Source of the DNA: a virus | Lineage: Duplodnaviria; Heunggongvirae; Uroviricota; Caudoviricetes | Reading direction: 5' to 3' (one strand) | DNA: 23,512 nucleotides | IMG/VR virus record: IMGVR_UViG_2531839455_000001 | Shown: positions 3,517 to 17,207 of the stretch, one piece after another | How positions within the stretch are numbered: position 1 is the first letter of the stretch | Layout of the letters: each line of letters begins with the position of its first letter | Translations under genes and position numbers: made by a program | Notes under the pieces: generated by a model | Told to the model about the DNA's origin: nothing | What the model saw: only the letters and a program-made list of their open reading frames with translations | Database searches by the model: none

Positions 3517-4043
3517 TTGCGTAACTCCGATAACTCGTTAAAGCGTTCCATAAACATCCCGTAGGCATGGCCCGGTGCCAGTGGAATCACGTTGAACATC
3601 TCTGTTGCCGGGATACCTTCCAGTACAGGCCAGAAAGAGCCATCATCAAGCCCGAGATCGCGGCGTTCGGTTGCCAGCATGATGAGATCGGCATATTTCA
3701 CGGGCGTACTCATAACTGGGGGTAACCCGTATTTCTCACGGATTACGGCGTCTATTTTTTCTTCCATTTGTTTATAGTCAGGAAGAAGGCGTTTCAGTGG
3801 TGCGGGAATGTCCTGGCAATACGCTTCTGTTGCATCATGCATTAACGCTTCAAAAGCAAATTCCTGCGGCACCAGCTGGCTGCAAAGAACCGCATGTTGG
3901 GCGACGCTGTAGAAGTGCGAAAGATGACCGGCAAAGCGACAGATATTTGAAAGGGAAACCGCGATATCGTTAATATCGATGTCGTCTTTATTTATCCTGT
4001 CATAATAAAAATGCTTCCCGGAAAAAGTTTTAATAAATGACAT
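3507..4043 (-). CDS. yfdR: HD-domain phosphohydrolase (5'-deoxynucleotidase YfdR-like), 178 aa
   Basis: HD motif in ...FEALMHDATEAYCQD...; start chosen at MSFIKTFSGKHFYY (ATG 4043) with GGAG 7 nt upstream; ORF track start at 4070 is probably 9 codons too long. Confidence 0.8.
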   Translation of the reverse strand: MSFIKTFSGKHFYYDRINKDDIDINDIAVSLSNICRFAGHLSHFYSVAQHAVLCSQLVPQEFAFEALMHDATEAYCQDIPAPLKRLLPDYKQMEEKIDAVIREKYGLPPVMSTPVKYADLIMLATERRDLGLDDGSFWPVLEGIPATEMFNVIPLAPGHAYGMFMERFNELSELRKCA

Positions 4044-4170
4044 TTTGTTCTCCACGTATATGCGCTGCACCGCGCTGAATTCTGGTAAAAAGAATCCCTC
4101 ACCATCCGGCGATTATTGAGTAAATTACGTTTCCATAAATGCCCCCGCAGGGGCATTTGCAGTAATGAAA

Positions 4171-4995
4171 TCAGGCGGTGAAAGTACCAATAAAGGTTTC
4201 TACTTTGCTGTCCTTGAATTTCTCAACAAGCAGCTCACGAAATTCGTTAGCCATTTCTTCCTGCACCGCCTCCAGCTGAATAATGCGCAGAACCAGTACA
4301 GGACGATCGCCAGTGATAATACTGAGGCGTAATTTAAACGGACGTTCTTTCAGACCTTCAAACGGAACGCATTTAAATTCAAATGCCACTGGCATAATGT
4401 CTTTGGTCTTCGCTTCGACAGACTCCATCAGGGAGCGTTTGCCGCTGAAGTCATTATCTTCAAAATCAGCGGTCTGGTTTGCTTCAATCGTGATTTTACG
4501 GACAGCCGCAGCCGCTTTTGTTGCCTGAATAGCGTCACCATTAGCATCAAAGCCCACAAGATAGTCGGCCCAGTCTTCAATCCATTCTGCTAGTGACTTC
4601 TGGGAGTTACGCTCGCCGTTAACAGACAACAGAGCAGAGAACGGTGCTGTCTTTTTCAGTTTGAGTGTGGCGGTGTTATCTGCGTGACCTGGTTCATCAA
4701 TAGTACCTAGGTTAAGCACACTGACGGCACGCATATTATCAGCATCGATAAAGCAGCGGGTGCCTTCATCTGCAAGATCTTTAGAATAACGGGTAAAATC
4801 ATCGATGCTGGCAGTGGAAAGCGCACCACGGAAACGGAAGCGATTTAAATTAAATTTTTCCAGATCATGAATGCGGAAATTCTCAGGCAATGCCACAGCA
4901 TCGGCACCAATCTTACTGATAATTTCATTAACACCCTGAGCAGAAATAAGGGCATGGATTTGATTAATTGCGGTTGCGTCTAAGTTCTGAGACAT
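4171..4995 (-). CDS. yfdQ: DUF2303-type prophage protein, YfdQ-like (274 aa)
   Basis: [29 protein letters not shown]...; length and order match recalled CPS-53 yfdQ. Confidence 0.75.
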
Positions 4996-5423: not shown

Positions 5424-5892
5424 TTTGCTGCTCCTCATCATATCGACCCTGCAAGGTCGGTTAGTTTCTCCACAAAACAGAGAAGAACACCTGCGGTGAC
5501 TGCCGCCCGGATGGATTGGGTTATGAGCCCGTCGTCCGGTGATGCTCTTCTCTGTTTTGTAAAAAGGACGGTACCAGCCGGAAGCAAGGGTACAAGCTGG
5601 TACCGCCAAGACTACACACAGCATAAAGTTGTGGTGCCGGGTGCCTCCCGGTGCCTGGCGAAGGTTGCACACCAGGCGGGTGGGTATCCACAGAAGGTCG
5701 ACTGTCAGCCTCAACCTTAACCCGCGTGCGCTGAGCCGCATTCACCACAACGCTAAGGATTCTCTCTGGTTGAAAATACTTAGCTGTTATGTGCCTGCTT
5801 TTAGCCACATCAGGCGAGGTGGACCTAGTTATTCCCCAACAACAAGGATTCGGTTAATCTGGATATCCCCAACAACAATAAGAGTATTCAAT

Positions 5893-9490: not shown

Positions 9491-10009
9491 ATGACGTTCA
9501 GAAATTCATTGAAGCCCAAAGATATTGTTGGTGTATGGACCGTATGTCACGGGCATATTGCACCGCCAGATATTCCGGCAGGCTTCGTGGCTGTTTTCAA
9601 CAGTGATGAGGCATCGTGGCATCTCGTTGAAGACCATCGAGGTAAAACGGTTTATGACGTGGCATCAGGGGACGCGTTATTTATTTCTGAACTCGGTCCG
9701 TTACCGGAAAATGTTACTTGGTTGTCACCGGAAGGGGAATATCAGAAGTGGAACGGCACAGCCTGGGTGAAGGATACGGAAGCAGAAAAACTGTTCCGGA
9801 TCCGGGAGGCGGAAGAAACAAAAAACAGCCTGATGCAGGTAGCCAGTGAGCATATTGCGCCGCTTCAGGATGCTGCAGATCTGGAAATCGCAACGGAGGA
9901 AGAAACCTCGTTGCTTGAAGCCTGGAAGAAGTATCGGGTGTTGCTGAATCGTGTTGATACATCAACTGCACCTGATATTGAGTGGCCTGCAATCCCTGTT
10001 ATGGAATAA
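9491..10009 (+). pseudogene. Tail fibre assembly (Tfa) gene remnant: conserved C-terminal portion only, fused to an unrelated short N-terminus
   Basis: ...[35 protein letters not shown]...[16 protein letters not shown]...[22 protein letters not shown] matches the recalled Tfa C-terminal domain; canonical Tfa N-terminus absent; no tail fibre gene upstream. Confidence 0.65.
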
Positions 10010-10562: not shown

Positions 10563-11504
10563 ATGTCCGGTTACTGTTTTTACTCTCAGGATGCATTAGC
10601 CTTAGCCCAGGCAGCTGGTGTTGATGTAATAATAAACGAGTATGCTGAGAAGAATAAAAAACAGACATATGTTCTTTGTCGTCCCCTGTCAAATGAGGAT
10701 GTAAAGTATGATTATGACCAAGCGATAGCGGTATTTTCGGCTGGTATAAAACCTTTTTTTATGAATTTAGGAGATGACGTCGAACTCTTTGAAGAGTATC
10801 AAGAGGATTTTCTAGAGGATGTATCATATTTAGCAGAGAAATTTAAGTATCGTAGTAAAATTGGAAGAAAAAAGACATGGCAAGATTTATTTGAAGTACT
10901 TTCTGTTGGTGATGCCGATTTCAGTAAGCTGGAGGTTGAAACTAAAGAAAGTAGAATAATTGATTTGCTAATCTCGCTTATTGTGGGAAGTATTAACGAT
11001 ACTTCAAGAATTAATCTTGAAGCAAGTAATTTATTAGATACAATAAAATCAAAGATTATTTTATTTGATACTGATCAAACAAAATTCGTTTTCCAAAGTG
11101 GAATTGGAAAAAAGACTGTAATACAAGGCTTGGCTGGTTCGGGGAAAACAGAACTCCTTTTACATAAATTAAAAGAGGTTTATTTAAGGAACCCTGATGC
11201 TAAAATTGCATTTACTTGTTTTAATAAAATACTTGCATCTACAATGAGAACTAGGATACCAGAGTTTTTTGATTTTATGCGAGTGGAAAAGCAAATTGAA
11301 TGGGGTACGAAACTTTTTTGTTTTAACTCTTGGGGTTTGACTAAAGATCCCTTTTCTGGGATGTATAGATATATATGTCATTATTACGAAATTCCATTCG
11401 GTGGTTTTGGCAACGGAGATTTCGATGCTCTTTGCAAAAAAGCCATTTTGGATATAAAAAAAGTGGGCGGTCTGATGAAAAAGCTCTCGATTATGTGTTT
11501 ATAG
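10563..11504 (+). CDS. UvrD-like SF1 helicase, N-terminal segment (unknown ~190-aa N-domain + Walker A); reading frame ends shortly after an A7 run
   Basis: AGAGGAGG RBS before ATG; Walker A GLAGSGKTELLLHK (nt ~11127-11168); AT-rich; frame continues sensibly in the -1 frame after 11456-11462. Confidence 0.7.
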   Translation: MSGYCFYSQDALALAQAAGVDVIINEYAEKNKKQTYVLCRPLSNEDVKYDYDQAIAVFSAGIKPFFMNLGDDVELFEEYQEDFLEDVSYLAEKFKYRSKIGRKKTWQDLFEVLSVGDADFSKLEVETKESRIIDLLISLIVGSINDTSRINLEASNLLDTIKSKIILFDTDQTKFVFQSGIGKKTVIQGLAGSGKTELLLHKLKEVYLRNPDAKIAFTCFNKILASTMRTRIPEFFDFMRVEKQIEWGTKLFCFNSWGLTKDPFSGMYRYICHYYEIPFGGFGNGDFDALCKKAILDIKKVGGLMKKLSIMCL

Positions 11505-12550
11505 ATGAAAGCCAAGATTTTCCACAAAGCTTCATTGAACTATGTGAAATGGTTACATCTAAAAAACTATATGTAGCGGGCGATGTATTTCAAAATATAT
11601 TTATGCCGATTAATGATAACGTGAATCGAGCAGATATAGTTCTTAAAAAATGTTATCGCACAGATCCAAAGAACTTAATGTTTTCTCATGCACTAGGAAT
11701 GGGACTTTATGAGAAACCGGTGCTTCGGTGGTTGAAAGAGACTGAGTGGGATTCTTGTGGATATAAATATAATAAGGTTGGGGATAGAGTACATTTATCT
11801 AGGGATCCGTTAAGACGCTTTGAAGATATTCCAAAAAATCATAAAAGTACGGCTATTCATTTACTAAAAGAAGTGGATAATGGTCCTGATAAAATAGTTG
11901 AAATTATTAAGGATATTCAGGCCCGCAATCCTACTTTAGAGCAAGGAGATATAGCAGTCATTTTCCTTGATGCTAGTGGTTATATTTATGATTATATTCA
12001 ATCACTAAAATCAAAAGTCAAGTTGCAGCTTGGTTGGGACTCTAATATTTCACATGAGACAAAATCAAAACAAGATGGGAAGCTTTTTATTTCCAATATA
12101 AACAATGCAAAAGGGCTTGAGTTCCCATTTGTTATTTGTTTTGCTATGAAATTAGTAAAGAGAGCAAACTTTCGAAATGCTCTGTATACTATGATGGCTA
12201 GATCTTTTTTAGAAAGCCATTTAGTTTTAAATAATGATAATGAAAATCCGGCAATGCCTACTATTATTGAAGGTTTAGATTTTCTCAATAAAAATGATTA
12301 TATGGATGTAAGACTTCCGTCGGATGAGGAAATAAACAATCAAAAGGATTATATTATTTTGGATGAGTCTACCTCTATTAATCAAATGGTTAGAAAATAT
12401 TGTGAAGATAAAAAATCCACACCTCGCTTAATAGCAAAAGTTACTCACACTGTAGAAACTATAATAGCAGGTCTTGATGATGATGATGTCGATGATGACT
12501 ATATAAATAGATTGATTGAAATAGAATATATAAGGAATAAAAAGTTATGA
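11375..12550 (+). CDS. UvrD-like SF1 helicase, C-terminal segment (helicase motifs II-VI); meaningful coding begins near 11462
   Basis: Motifs DYVFIDESQDF (II), YVAGDVFQNIF (III), CYRT (IV), AKGLEFPFVICF (VI); first ~29 codons of the ORF are an out-of-frame overlap with the N-terminal segment. Confidence 0.7.
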   Translation: MSLLRNSIRWFWQRRFRCSLQKSHFGYKKSGRSDEKALDYVFIDESQDFPQSFIELCEMVTSKKLYVAGDVFQNIFMPINDNVNRADIVLKKCYRTDPKNLMFSHALGMGLYEKPVLRWLKETEWDSCGYKYNKVGDRVHLSRDPLRRFEDIPKNHKSTAIHLLKEVDNGPDKIVEIIKDIQARNPTLEQGDIAVIFLDASGYIYDYIQSLKSKVKLQLGWDSNISHETKSKQDGKLFISNINNAKGLEFPFVICFAMKLVKRANFRNALYTMMARSFLESHLVLNNDNENPAMPTIIEGLDFLNKNDYMDVRLPSDEEINNQKDYIILDESTSINQMVRKYCEDKKSTPRLIAKVTHTVETIIAGLDDDDVDDDYINRLIEIEYIRNKKL

Positions 12551-13185
12551 GTTTTTATTTCTTTAATAATGTACCTACAGTGTACCTTGAAAAGTTCTGC
12601 GCTGTAAGAGATGCATTTTCCAATCTGGAAAATCTTCTTATTGCTGCGGAAATTATAAATACATGTCATGACTGTTGGAATAAAGAAACAAATGATTTCG
12701 ATTTGCTAATAAGTACTGGTACTCATAAGCGAATTCTGGTGAGGAAACCGGATGGTTTTTTTTCTATGAATTTACCATTTCAAGTAATTGAGTATGAAAG
12801 CAATATCTGTTTTAACTATGATGCCTATGGGCTTCCTGTTAATGCAGAGTTTATTTCTCGATGCAGGAATGTAATAAATACTTGCAGTAATGGCGCTTTT
12901 TCTCAGGAGGCAATTGCTCTTGAATTGTGTGATAACTTTGATCGAGATATTCAAAGTGCTATAAATTATGCTGATGCAATTTGTTCATTGTTGTTAGTTG
13001 ATCATGGGTATTTTAGGTTTGATGATGATCCTAAAAATGCGAAGGATAAAGTGCATCCAAGATATCACTTTGATTTTTTCTTCAATAATTCTACTAATGT
13101 AAAGATAGGCTGTAATACTCGTTTGGATGAATCATTTTTTTTAGAACTATTTGATGTAAATAAAGACCGCCCCTATCTGGCTTGA
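12547..13185 (+). CDS. Hypothetical 212-aa protein, translationally coupled partner of the helicase
   Basis: ATG overlaps helicase stop (ATGA); AT-rich, Cys/His/Asp-rich (LVDHGYFRFDDDPKNAKDKVHPRYHFDF); strong hairpin directly after stop. Confidence 0.65.
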   Translation: MSFYFFNNVPTVYLEKFCAVRDAFSNLENLLIAAEIINTCHDCWNKETNDFDLLISTGTHKRILVRKPDGFFSMNLPFQVIEYESNICFNYDAYGLPVNAEFISRCRNVINTCSNGAFSQEAIALELCDNFDRDIQSAINYADAICSLLLVDHGYFRFDDDPKNAKDKVHPRYHFDFFFNNSTNVKIGCNTRLDESFFLELFDVNKDRPYLA

Positions 13186-13635: not shown

Positions 13636-14504
13636 TTATGAAAGACCGTAGTATTTATTTAGCGCGGTGGTAGCGGCTTGAGTTGCTACAGCTATTCCTA
13701 TACCCAAAATACCATGGGCTGCTTTACTTGCAATATTTGCCAGCCATTTACTAACAGATTGACCGTATTCATCACGTCTGTTAGCTATCGGGCCATCTTC
13801 ACCAATAGCAATTTCTAAATCGTTTACATCAGATTTAGGAAACCCCTGAGCTAAGAGATATTCTTTTAATGATTCAATGTTGTTTTTTACGATATGGTTA
13901 TTCACAGAAAATGAGTTTTCATTTCCGAAGTTTATAACAGTATTGTCTCCAAAAATTGAGTTATGAAACAATGAAGACGTGTCGATATTTTTAAGTTTTT
14001 CTGTCATGTTTTTCTCATCTGATATTTCAGAAACTTGATCAGAAAGTTCAAGTATAAAATCAAGTAGCCGTGATCTGACCTGAGTTAAGATGGAAGTGAA
14101 GTTATGTAGCGCGATCTCTTTATAACAGCATGTTAACTCATAGCCTCTATCGATACCTTTGCAATATTTAACTAATGCATAATCTAAAGGAATTGGCTGC
14201 TGCAGGGTATGGCTATCACCAGCATTGGTTACTAGGTCTTCGATTTGACTGATTGAAAGTCTAACTTTACTGGTTGTAGCATCTTCATAGTCATCTTCAC
14301 TGAGATAGCCAATCGGTAAAGGAAAAGCTCTATATAGGCGAATGCCATTGTTCAGATCTGCAAGAATTCTTGTGCCAACAATTCTATAATCGGGAAGGGA
14401 AACTGAATCAGAATAACCGTTTATCTCATGATTTACCCATGCAGCAAGCTCCTTTTTCCCGATAGAGAAAAGAAGGATCTTTGTTTTTATGAGAGCATCT
14501 GTTG
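13636..14504 (-). pseudogene. Abi-like gene (AbiTii-type N-terminal domain suspected), 3' portion; gene split by IS66-family insertion
   Basis: Minus-strand frame is open from the IS boundary (14504) to the stop at 13636 (...KELAAWVNHEINGYSDS...MTEKLKNIDTSS...AAHGILGIGIAVATQAATTALNKYYGLS); the ORF track shows only the distal 123 aa because there is no in-frame ATG upstream. Confidence 0.6.
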
Positions 14505-14534
14505 GTAAGCGGCTCGTCAGAACCGTATTGATAT

Positions 14535-16106
14535 TTACTGAGAGCTCAGATCAACTTTCCAGGGCAACAGATCGCGTACCCGGTTTGCCGGCCAGTCCTG
14601 GATATGTTCAATGACGTAGCGCAGCCACTTTTCTGGCTCCACATTGTTCAGACGGCATGTGCCGATCAGCGAGTACAACACCGCCGCATGTTCACCACCG
14701 CTGTCGGAACCCGCGAACATCCACTTTTTCCGGCCTACGGCCACTCCCCGTAAGGCGTTCTCTGCGATGTTGTTGTCGATTTCCACCCAGCCATTACTGC
14801 AGTACACGTTCAGTGCATCCCACTGTTTCAGCAGGTATGCGAACGCTTTTGCCGTATCTGAGTGACGCGACAGTGTTTTCATCTGTTGCTGTATCCAGTC
14901 ATACAGTGACTGCATCAGTGGCGCGGCTCTGGTTTTTCTTGCCGCCAGACGCTGTTCTGCTGAACAGCCCCGGACCTCTGCCTCGATGGCATACAGTTCA
15001 CCGATACGCTGCAGGGCTTCCGTGGTGATGTCGGTGGGCGCTCTTGCATGCACATCGTGGATTTTTCTCCGGGCATGAGCCATACACGCGGCTTCCGTTA
15101 TTCTGCCGGATTCGTATAACGCCCGGTAACCACCGTAAGCATCGGCCTGAAGCACACCGCTGTAACCGGCCAGGTGATTTTGTGGATGGATACCTTTCCG
15201 GTCCGGACTGTACGCGAACCAGACCGCCGGGGGCATCTGTGAACCGGCGTTACGGTCATCACGGACGTAGACCCACAGCCGGGCTGTCCGGGTTTTACCG
15301 CTGCCCGGCTCCTGGACCGGGACGGGGATATCATCAGCATGGACTTTACCGGGCATCAGCACATACTGGCGCAGGACGTCATACAGCGGCTCCAGTAGTT
15401 CAGCAACGGCACCTGTCCAGCGCCCCAGTGTGGCACGGCTCAGCTCCACACCCTGACGGCGGTATATCTCTGACTGGCGGTATAACGGCAGATGGTCTGC
15501 ATATTTTCCGGTGACGACATGGGCCAGGAGCCCCGCTCCGGCATAACTGCGTGCAATGGGTTTTGAAGGTACTGGTGCCTGCACGATATGGTCGCACCGA
15601 CAACAGGCCAGTTTCGGACGTTGTGTTTCGATAACCTTAAAGGCGCTGCTGATAAGCTCCAGTTGCTCTGACACATCACATCCCAGAGAACTGAGTTCAC
15701 CACCACAGGCAGGACAGCATTCCTCTTCCGGCCGGATAACCCGGGTTTCACGGGGAAGTGAGGCCGGTAACGGTTTACGGGCTGAAGACTGGCGCAGGGC
15801 GGATGGCAGTACCGGGTCATATTGCTCACCCAGCGTTTCCGCCATTTCTTCCTGAAGTGCGCTGATTCGCTCCTGTGCTTCCTGTATCTGCCGTTCGGTT
15901 TTTGCACGAAGTTTTTCTGAGCTTTTACCGAACTGCATACGTTGCAGTTTCGCAACCAGCGCCTTCAGCCGGTTGATTTCGGAAGCATAAGCCGCCACCC
16001 GCTGTGAGAGCAGGCGGTTGTATTCAGCCATCTGGCGTATGGTGTCCTGTTGCGTCTGCAACAGTGCCCGCAGGCGGGCGTTCTCATGAGCAAGTGAGGT
16101 GTCCAT
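14535..16106 (-). CDS. tnpC: IS66-family transposase TnpC (523 aa)
   Basis: [20 protein letters not shown]... with leucine-zipper-like N-terminus, CxxC...CxxC zinc-finger and DDE-type core, matching recalled IS66 Orf3. Confidence 0.9.
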
Positions 16107-16125
16107 ATCCTCACTTTACAACGGG

Positions 16126-16473
16126 TTATATGCGGATTCCAGCGCGTTCCGTTCGTTTCGGGTGCTTCCAGTTGATACCTTCAAGAAGCATGGATAACTG
16201 AGCCGGAGTAAGGTGCACCTTGCCGTCACGGGTGACTGGCCAGACGAAGCGGCCCCGCTCCAGGCGTTTGGTGAAGAGGCACAGTCCGTCACTGTCAGCC
16301 CACAACACTTTTATCTGGTCACCCCGGCGTCCGCGGAAGATGAACAGGTGTCCGGAGAACGGGTCATCCTTCAGGACGTTCTGAACTTTTGATGCCAGGC
16401 CGTTAAAGCCATTTCGCATATCGGTGATACCTGCAACCAGCCAGATACGCGAACCTGCAGGGAGAGATATCAT
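16126..16473 (-). CDS. tnpB: IS66-family TnpB (Orf2), 115 aa
   Basis: MISLPAGSRIWLVAGITDMRNGFNGLASKVQ...GHLFIFRGRRGDQIKVLWAD..., the recalled conserved IS66 Orf2 signature. Confidence 0.85.
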   Translation of the reverse strand: MISLPAGSRIWLVAGITDMRNGFNGLASKVQNVLKDDPFSGHLFIFRGRRGDQIKVLWADSDGLCLFTKRLERGRFVWPVTRDGKVHLTPAQLSMLLEGINWKHPKRTERAGIRI

Positions 16474-16679
16474 CAGTGGCTGCTCCCTTTTATTTCGCGG
16501 ATAAGTGTCTGTAATAACGCCGGCGTCAGTTTACCTTTAAGCCTGAGAGTTCCGGCCGGCAGAACCAGCTCACAACACAGACTGTCGGACGGTGTATTTA
16601 TCTGCTCTGGTTCCTGTGCGGGGGCCGGGATTTTATTATCCGGCTCCGGCGTTAACGTCACGGGAAGCAGTGCCGGCAT
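16473..16679 (-). CDS. IS66-internal small ORF (68 aa), stop overlaps tnpB start; possibly part of the accessory protein
   Basis: ATGA overlap with tnpB; Pro-rich; no in-frame ATG upstream; uncertain. Confidence 0.3.
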   Translation of the reverse strand: MPALLPVTLTPEPDNKIPAPAQEPEQINTPSDSLCCELVLPAGTLRLKGKLTPALLQTLIREIKGSSH

Positions 16680-16809
16680 ATTTTTTCCGGAAGGCAGCAG
16701 GCCACCTTTCCGGTATTGATGGTCGCCAGTTGAAGAGCAGGTTATCGTTGATTCCGTTTTCCCGGGGCGATCTGCGCCACACAGGCTCCGGGCTGCAGTG
16801 ACTGCTCCA

Positions 16810-17154
16810 CTAAGGCGATTTTAAACTCATAAGGGAAGTTGGGCCGCCGGGGGACGTTTTTTTACCACGGGGGCGTTCGGATATAACGGTGCTTTCAGGA
16901 CGTACGACTGGTACCGTGGAAAATTGTCCGTAAAGGCAGGCATCAAGTTCCTGCTCCGACATGCCTGCGGGCAAAGGCCACGAAAGGCCAGCTCTCCGAA
17001 AGCGCACGAACATACTACAAACTGTTGATTTTGGTACACCCAGGCGACGCCCGGCCACAACCCGGGGTAAATGTTCTTCAAAGTGAAGACGTAAAGCTTC
17101 AGTGATCCAGGTCCGGTGTTTCATACGATAGTGTCCATTAAAAATGATGGACAT
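16810..17154 (-). CDS. tnpA: IS66-family accessory protein TnpA (Orf1), HTH-containing, ~104-114 aa
   Basis: First ORF inside the left IR, same strand as tnpB/tnpC; HTH-like ...LGVPKSTVCSMFVRFRRAGLSWPLP...; alternative start MKHRTWITE at 17124. Confidence 0.5.
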   Translation of the reverse strand: MSIIFNGHYRMKHRTWITEALRLHFEEHLPRVVAGRRLGVPKSTVCSMFVRFRRAGLSWPLPAGMSEQELDACLYGQFSTVPVVRPESTVISERPRGKKTSPGGPTSLMSLKSP

Positions 17155-17207
17155 TATTTTTGTAGAGCCGGAGGAAACAGACCAGACGGTTTAAATGAGC
17201 CGGTTAC

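Follow-up and report, generated by a model that had tools for sequence, protein, structure and literature searches.

A split helicase gene in an E. coli prophage probably reflects a one-base deletion in a generic A8 hotspot

The helicase gene that lies in two reading frames in the window (by which we mean the whole stretch of DNA that was analysed, 23,512 nucleotides) is best explained, with a probability of about 0.8, as a single-ORF gene for a 662-aa helicase that has undergone a heritable 1-bp deletion, A8 to A7, at a generic mutational hotspot, the change being neither programmed nor demonstrably selected. Most likely, the base was lost from the A8 tract by slipped-strand mispairing during replication, and translation would then end 13 codons past the tract. 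We found no description of this A7 allele in the literature searched. The parts of the split gene are as follows.

10563-11504, + strand: ORF1, N-terminal helicase fragment in frame 0; on translation, 300 native residues, 13 out-of-frame residues and a stop
11456-11462, + strand: A7 tract, where the 1-bp deletion took one base from A8 (the parental ATA AAA AAA AGT codes for I K K S)
11462-12550, + strand: ORF2, remainder of the helicase in the -1 frame, with motif II (DESQD), the UvrD_C_2 domain and the C terminus

The run AAAAAAA is bordered by T (11455) on its 5' side and by G (11463) on its 3' side, and frame 0 reads it as A_AAA_AAA and then G. The 313-aa product of ORF1 carries the Walker A motif GLAGSGKT and ends in ...ILDIKK, followed by the 13 out-of-frame residues VGGLMKKLSIMCL and the stop codon at 11502-11504. 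The -1 frame (positions congruent to 2 modulo 3) reads ...KKSGRSDEKALDYVFIDESQDF... and is open to 12550, continuing beyond the A run as SGRSDEKALDYVFIDESQDF... to its end there. ORF2 has no obvious start of its own; gene callers choose GTG at 11495 or ATG at 11549, giving called genes of 351 or 333 aa, and the version that starts at ATG 11549 lacks motif II. When compared with the NF053713 profile, ORF1 covers positions 3-309 (426.4 bits) and ORF2 positions 310-661 (469.1 bits), so that each falls below the 550-bit cutoff, and the two matches abut at positions 309/310, which puts the frame transition exactly at the A run. A/T runs of at least 7 bases occur at 17 places in the window, and an A7 run as such is unremarkable. 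That the transition falls on this one is no coincidence, because over 2.9 kb the window differs from E. coli strain 504239 by a single base, A7 versus A8. The initial annotation had proposed that the helicase switches from frame 0 to frame -1 at this A7, with the Walker A frame stopping at 11504 and motif II onward lying in the -1 frame; the translations agree on both points, as does the profile abutment on the first. The full-length helicase, which it put at ~650 aa, has 662 aa.

Near-identical E. coli genomes have A8 at the site and one 662-aa ORF, which encodes an SF1 helicase of the STM2767 family. Restoring A8 in the window yields a protein that matches NF053713 with 903.7 bits over profile positions 3-661 of 665 (cutoff 550), which places it in the STM2767 family, and that also matches the Pfam families UvrD_C_2 (45.3 bits; cutoff 27.4), UvrD-helicase (33; cutoff 23) and AAA_19 (33; cutoff 25.1). 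It has the features of an SF1 (UvrD-like) helicase, with GSGKT in the ORF1 part, DESQD in the ORF2 part and UvrD-type domains; no domain was assigned to its N-terminal region of ~160 aa, and a search against PDB sequences gave no matches for the helicase. The gene is followed immediately, on the same strand, by a partner gene, giving the arrangement of an STM2767/STM2766 module.

12547-13185, + strand: intact gene for an STM2766-family helicase-associated protein of 212 aa (NF053714, 202.9 bits; cutoff 70), the start of which overlaps the helicase stop by 4 nt

Of 5426 complete E. coli genomes, 31 have the cassette of helicase and partner, each in a single, chromosomal copy. All 11 of the complete E. 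coli genomes that we inspected directly, which span five haplotype groups with 96.4-100% identity, have A8 and an uninterrupted helicase CDS; the protein is 662 aa long in these genomes except at locus L046, where the gene is cut short at its 3' end by IS1 and a CDS of 1962 bp still spans the tract. A8 was read in loci L001-L003, L013-L016, L046 and L048-L051. Outside E. coli, Salmonella members of the family (660 aa) have DINNSG at the site of the tract in a single ORF, Klebsiella and Pantoea have ATA AAT AAT AGT, again in single ORFs, and a single frame runs across the site in 25 of 25 other-species homologues with an alignment that spans it. The linker that contains the tract is poorly conserved and immediately precedes motif II. 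Because the E. coli relatives have A8 in a single ORF and the outgroups have AAT AAT in a single frame, these comparisons indicate that in-frame A8 is the parental state in E. coli and A7 the derived one, and that the tract itself is a recent feature of the E. coli clade, formed by a change of AAT AAT to AAA AAA. The reverse order, with A7 ancestral and A8 derived, is ruled out by the outgroups. A 1-bp deletion from an A8 ancestor was among the initial annotation's own proposals and is borne out by the 11 complete genomes and the single-ORF outgroups. The annotation had also named an observation that would speak against its reading, namely that homologues would consistently be two ORFs; what we found instead is homologues with A8 or AAT AAT, all with single ORFs.

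We next consider whether A7 could be an artefact of sequencing or assembly in the source contig, with A8 in the true genome. Homopolymers are classic sites of error, and the public contig AQFG01000016.1 (GCA_000355155.2) has four single-base insertions in an IS66 tnpA that are missing from the closest genomes compared. However, at least 24 contigs encode exactly this 313-aa truncated product, some in NCBI drafts that come from different projects and others in Logan assemblies, so that the same allele recurs across independent assemblies and projects that include direct assemblies of public read sets. A7 was read in nine of nine fetched loci of the lineage, each with 0-3 private SNPs, and the nine are therefore distinct isolates. 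A7 also occurs together with SNP 1512G in both sequences examined (the window and locus L047), whereas A8 occurs with 1512A in five of five complete genomes of the same clone. An assembly error at the A tract is ruled out by the A7 that independent assemblies have in common, which also disposes of the condition, set by the initial annotation, that resequencing might restore A8, and we regard an error of either kind in the source contig as very unlikely. A7 is thus a heritable allele of a sublineage, as shown by its presence in independent assemblies and its co-segregation with 1512G. Our scan of viral contigs found A7 on one IMG/VR contig, L047, and the metagenome scan gave no matches to the A7-A9 alleles.

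The insertions in IS66 are a different matter. A comparison of all 23.5 kb with strain 504239 gives the A7/A8 base, 3 SNPs and 4 private insertions as the differences, and against its closest complete relatives the window has at most 3 SNPs but five single-base indels. The insertions and the element that contains them are located as follows.

about 14505-17206: IS66-family element (ISCro1), interrupting an AbiTii-domain gene whose flanks lie at 13636-14504 and from 17207 onward
16723, 16764, 16849 and 16875, - strand: single-base insertions in the IS66/ISCro1 tnpA, all four within 153 bp

Three of the four insertions are in or beside G runs. The best match of the IS66 element in the complete E. 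coli collection is 99.6% identical, and the closest genomes lack all four insertions. The 114-aa ORF that the insertions create was found on one public contig only, AQFG01000016.1 of GCA_000355155.2, which matches the window exactly and is the likely origin of it. All four are probably errors made in assembling a multi-copy repeat; the helicase gene, by contrast, has one place per genome.

To ask how often such alleles arise, we looked up the exact sequences of predicted slippage products, using two T8 tracts in the partner gene as internal controls for the helicase tract. The counts below are of contigs, not of independent strains, and some of the slipped alleles seen only in Logan may be sequencing errors.

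11456, helicase A8: -1 allele on 16 contigs of L001 type, 3 of L013 type (L008), 6 of L014 type (P0031) and 3-5 of a fourth haplotype (P0006/P0050); +1 allele (A9) on 1 contig, of L014 type
12756-12763, + strand, partner T8: -1 allele (T7) on 14 contigs, +1 allele (T9) on 5
13135-13142, + strand, partner T8 near the 3' end of the gene: T7 on 9 contigs, T9 on 2
10754, helicase T7: -1 allele (T6) on 3 contigs, +1 allele (T8) on 0
11436, helicase A6: -1 allele on 0 contigs

Intact helicase alleles of three haplotypes were found on 360, 462 and 232 contigs (about 1054), and slipped alleles make up ~3% of contigs. At least four haplotypes have A7 and one has A9, so that the length varies in both directions. 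One of the partner frameshifts, T7 at 12756, is seen in the complete genome of strain S1-NGR-02-A, in which the partner gene is annotated as frameshifted. Slipped alleles are most numerous for 8-nt runs, fewer for 7 and fewest for 6, and deletions exceed insertions; this pattern is expected, because the indel rate in E. coli climbs exponentially with run length (PMC8510543). Without the 16 clonal contigs, the helicase tract is in line with the control tracts. Synonymous-codon shuffles gave no enrichment of runs of at least 8 nt in either gene (helicase, 1 observed versus a mean of 0.54, P = 0.46; partner, 2 observed versus a mean of 0.97, P = 0.21). The cassette is 32-33% GC and lysine-rich, and 8-nt runs therefore arise by composition. 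As a mutational hotspot, the A8 tract is generic and dependent on length, since the T8 controls have the same spectrum, the 7-nt run has few slipped alleles and the 6-nt run none, and 8-nt runs are not enriched. Like the other 8-nt runs of the cassette, it loses or gains a base recurrently across E. coli lineages.

These data also bear on the possibility of phase variation, with the tract as a contingency locus that reversibly turns the helicase module ON and OFF (A7 being OFF), for example to relieve cost or autoimmunity. The length variants in both directions fit such a switch, as do the lack of secondary decay in the A7 alleles (with A8 put back, the L008 protein equals the intact L013 protein, and L008 has no secondary disabling mutation; its upstream context is different, with an intact tail gene) and the recent innovation of the tract in the E. 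coli alleles. Short homopolymers can serve as reversible switches elsewhere, as is reported for a 7C run in glpK of M. tuberculosis (bioRxiv 10.1101/717272). The two T8 runs of the partner, however, have the same spectrum at comparable frequency, and because these controls behave alike there is nothing special about the helicase tract. The test with synonymous shuffles was negative for selection of mutable tracts. Within the window's clone, A7 co-segregates with the marker SNP and is uniform on at least 16 contigs, with no mixing among contigs. Slipped alleles are rare overall, and the tract is absent from sister clades and is not conserved outside E. coli. Where mismatch repair is proficient, an A8 tract of E. 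coli should have a much lower mutation rate than the classical contingency loci. The likeness to those loci, such as restriction-modification genes of Haemophilus, Neisseria and Campylobacter, lies in a repeat inside a putative defence-type ORF with -1 and +1 variants; the tract here differs in being short (8 nt), neither enriched nor conserved, similar to its controls and, judging from the contigs compared, stably inherited in the clone. Thus, although length polymorphism is bidirectional, the tract does not exceed comparable tracts in mutability, enrichment or conservation, and reversible phase variation between A8 and A7 is unproven and has no specific support; we consider it unlikely. The absence of secondary lesions from A7 fits a very recent inactivation and equally fits reversible switching or selection through leaky expression.

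The A7 tract could instead be a site of programmed recoding, in which the gene gives two products and also a full-length fusion, the latter made through transcriptional slippage or a -1 shift of the ribosome on A_AAA_AAA. The zero-frame X_XXY_YYZ heptamer is present as A_AAA_AAA, in the codons atA AAA AAA, and a -1 shift on it would give exactly the wild-type protein. IS elements use this heptamer, on which shifts are more frequent than background (PMC4066793). However, the stimulators of a programmed site are missing: GGAG, GAGG and AGGA do not occur within 30 nt upstream of the tract, and a downstream segment of 78 nt folds at -14.9 kcal/mol against a shuffle mean of -13.8 (z = -0.40), which is not beyond shuffles. 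A search of Rfam returned no matches at the A7 site. The two-ORF state is a minority, derived allele, with a single ORF in the ancestor and in all outgroups, and the truncated ORF1 product gives no sign of an independent role. The run of 7 nt is also shorter than the usual length for productive transcriptional slippage, about 9 A/T or, in some organisms, 8; selection against A/T runs, a proxy for slippage-prone length, is evident at ~9 nt in many bacterial genomes (PMC1088944). Compared with dnaX-type -1 frameshifting, the A7 site shares a zero-frame slippery heptamer of lysine codons and a meaningful protein as the outcome of the shift, whereas dnaX has A_AAA_AAG with an upstream SD-like element and a downstream hairpin, and the heptamer here ends in A and has neither stimulator. 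Unlike that of dnaX, the shifted arrangement is not conserved, and it is a mutation of in-frame A8. Programmed frameshifting at A7 is therefore not supported, since the stimulators are lacking, the run falls short of ~9 A/T and the two-ORF layout is not conserved; the suggestion in the initial annotation that the split gene might be joined in this way does not stand, and we hold it to be extremely improbable.

Adventitious leakage is another matter. A -1 ribosomal slip on A_AAA_AAA, or one A inserted by RNA polymerase, would restore the exact wild-type protein, probably at a fraction of a percent if published reporters are a guide. The frameshift background in E. coli is ~0.055%, and heptamers free of stimulators shift 2-10-fold more often, at about 0.1-0.5%; A_AA.A_AA.A is among the motifs with more than 0.10% frameshifting (PMC4066793). 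In the pDEST17 overexpression system, C-AAA-AAA gave 25-60% frameshifting (PMC1851650), so that leakage here could exceed this estimate; T7 RNA polymerase is unusually slippage-prone (PMC6149199). An adventitious, low-level full-length product is thus plausible. One could go further and suppose that the E. coli-specific A8 is a low-rate reversible switch of the module, and that A7 is an OFF state kept slightly leaky by -1 frameshifting or RNA polymerase slippage. If so, lineages could shed and regain the activity of the module while the gene is retained, but we regard this combined proposal as unlikely.

Under the preferred reading, a single-base deletion at a generic hotspot, the break would leave Walker A and motif Ia in ORF1, and motif II (DESQD) with every motif after it in ORF2, which lacks an evident start. 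Judged from this helicase architecture, the product would most likely be null or close to it, and the two-gene module as a whole most likely inactive in this lineage, apart from leakage. The allele resembles homopolymer slipped-strand frameshift alleles (pseudogenes or ‘fs-genes’) in being a single-base change of run length in a coding sequence that is length-dependent, deletion-biased and recurrent, and we see no substantive difference from such alleles in bacterial accessory genes. Together with the internal controls, it indicates that 8-nt homopolymers in AT-rich prophage cargo yield recurrent loss-of-function alleles, and such patterns should not be taken as phase variation or recoding without rate data.

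For annotation, the ORFs at 10563-11504 and 11462-12550 are to be read as one broken gene, not as two. Public records list the helicase halves as separate proteins, and the PHROGs families phrog_16361 (313 positions) and phrog_13375 (372 positions) split the helicase exactly at this junction. Since phrog_16361 has the same length as the 313-residue A7 product of ORF1, the frameshift allele may have been propagated into the reference library as two proteins.

The module itself is the more interesting object, as a conserved SF1 helicase with a 212-aa partner; it ranges from Proteobacteria to Firmicutes, and no function has been published for it. In the STM2767 literature the gene appears as a landmark only, and we did not find functional work there. 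In distant loci with enough flank, tblastn placed a partner homologue directly 3' of the helicase at 25 loci, from Proteobacteria to Firmicutes. Across loci L017-L041 the partner has the invariant motif GY[IF]R[YF]D.D ... HP..H.D ... K.G, with invariant residues R157, D159-D161, H170, P171, H174, D176, K186 and G188. Its AlphaFold model is confident, and searches returned no Pfam family and no convincing structural match to a known fold. The helicase is a partial match to the PADLOC ‘Helicase’ model (E = 3.6e-32), which we take to be part of the Helicase+DUF2290 system of Rousset et al. DUF2290 was not found in the partner, either in Pfam at E up to 10 or in PADLOC. The module resembles the Helicase + DUF2290 anti-phage system (Rousset et al. 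2022, PMC9122126) in its pair of genes, a helicase and then a small protein, and in its location within a hotspot of prophage cargo, but its partner lacks DUF2290, and NCBIfam has separate families, NF053713 and NF053714, for the two proteins. A role of the module in anti-phage defence is plausible from this context.

The prophage in the window is degraded and has thrW as its integration site. The cassette belongs to its AT-rich cargo, which is at the tail-fibre end, and the tail-fibre assembly gene upstream of the cassette is truncated and contains a further element.

9768-9966, + strand: IS009 (Rfam RF02111), matched over its full length with 220.9 bits; lies within the truncated tail-fibre assembly gene

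Elsewhere, the cassette follows the tail-fibre assembly gene of prophages at different chromosomal sites, beside AbiTii-domain and SMEK-domain genes. A search of the phage collection gave no match to the cassette, and the plasmid collection gave only a distant Salmonella copy, with 81.9% identity. The AbiTii-domain gene that IS66 interrupts in the window is intact (921 bp) in strain HCP5S3_I4 (L003, 6238-7158), so that a second putative defence gene is also inactivated in the lineage. Other strains inactivate the module by other routes, through a frameshift in the partner or an IS1 between the two genes. At L046 (strain Res13-Lact-PEB20-37-A), IS1 lies at 3636-4333, at the 3' end of the helicase gene, and parts it from the partner. 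Farther upstream in the window, a small prophage gene beside yfdP (about 5438-5748, - strand; L001, 7039-7349) is annotated as ‘frameshifted’ in five of the five complete genomes of the clone, which fits a generally decaying prophage at thrW.
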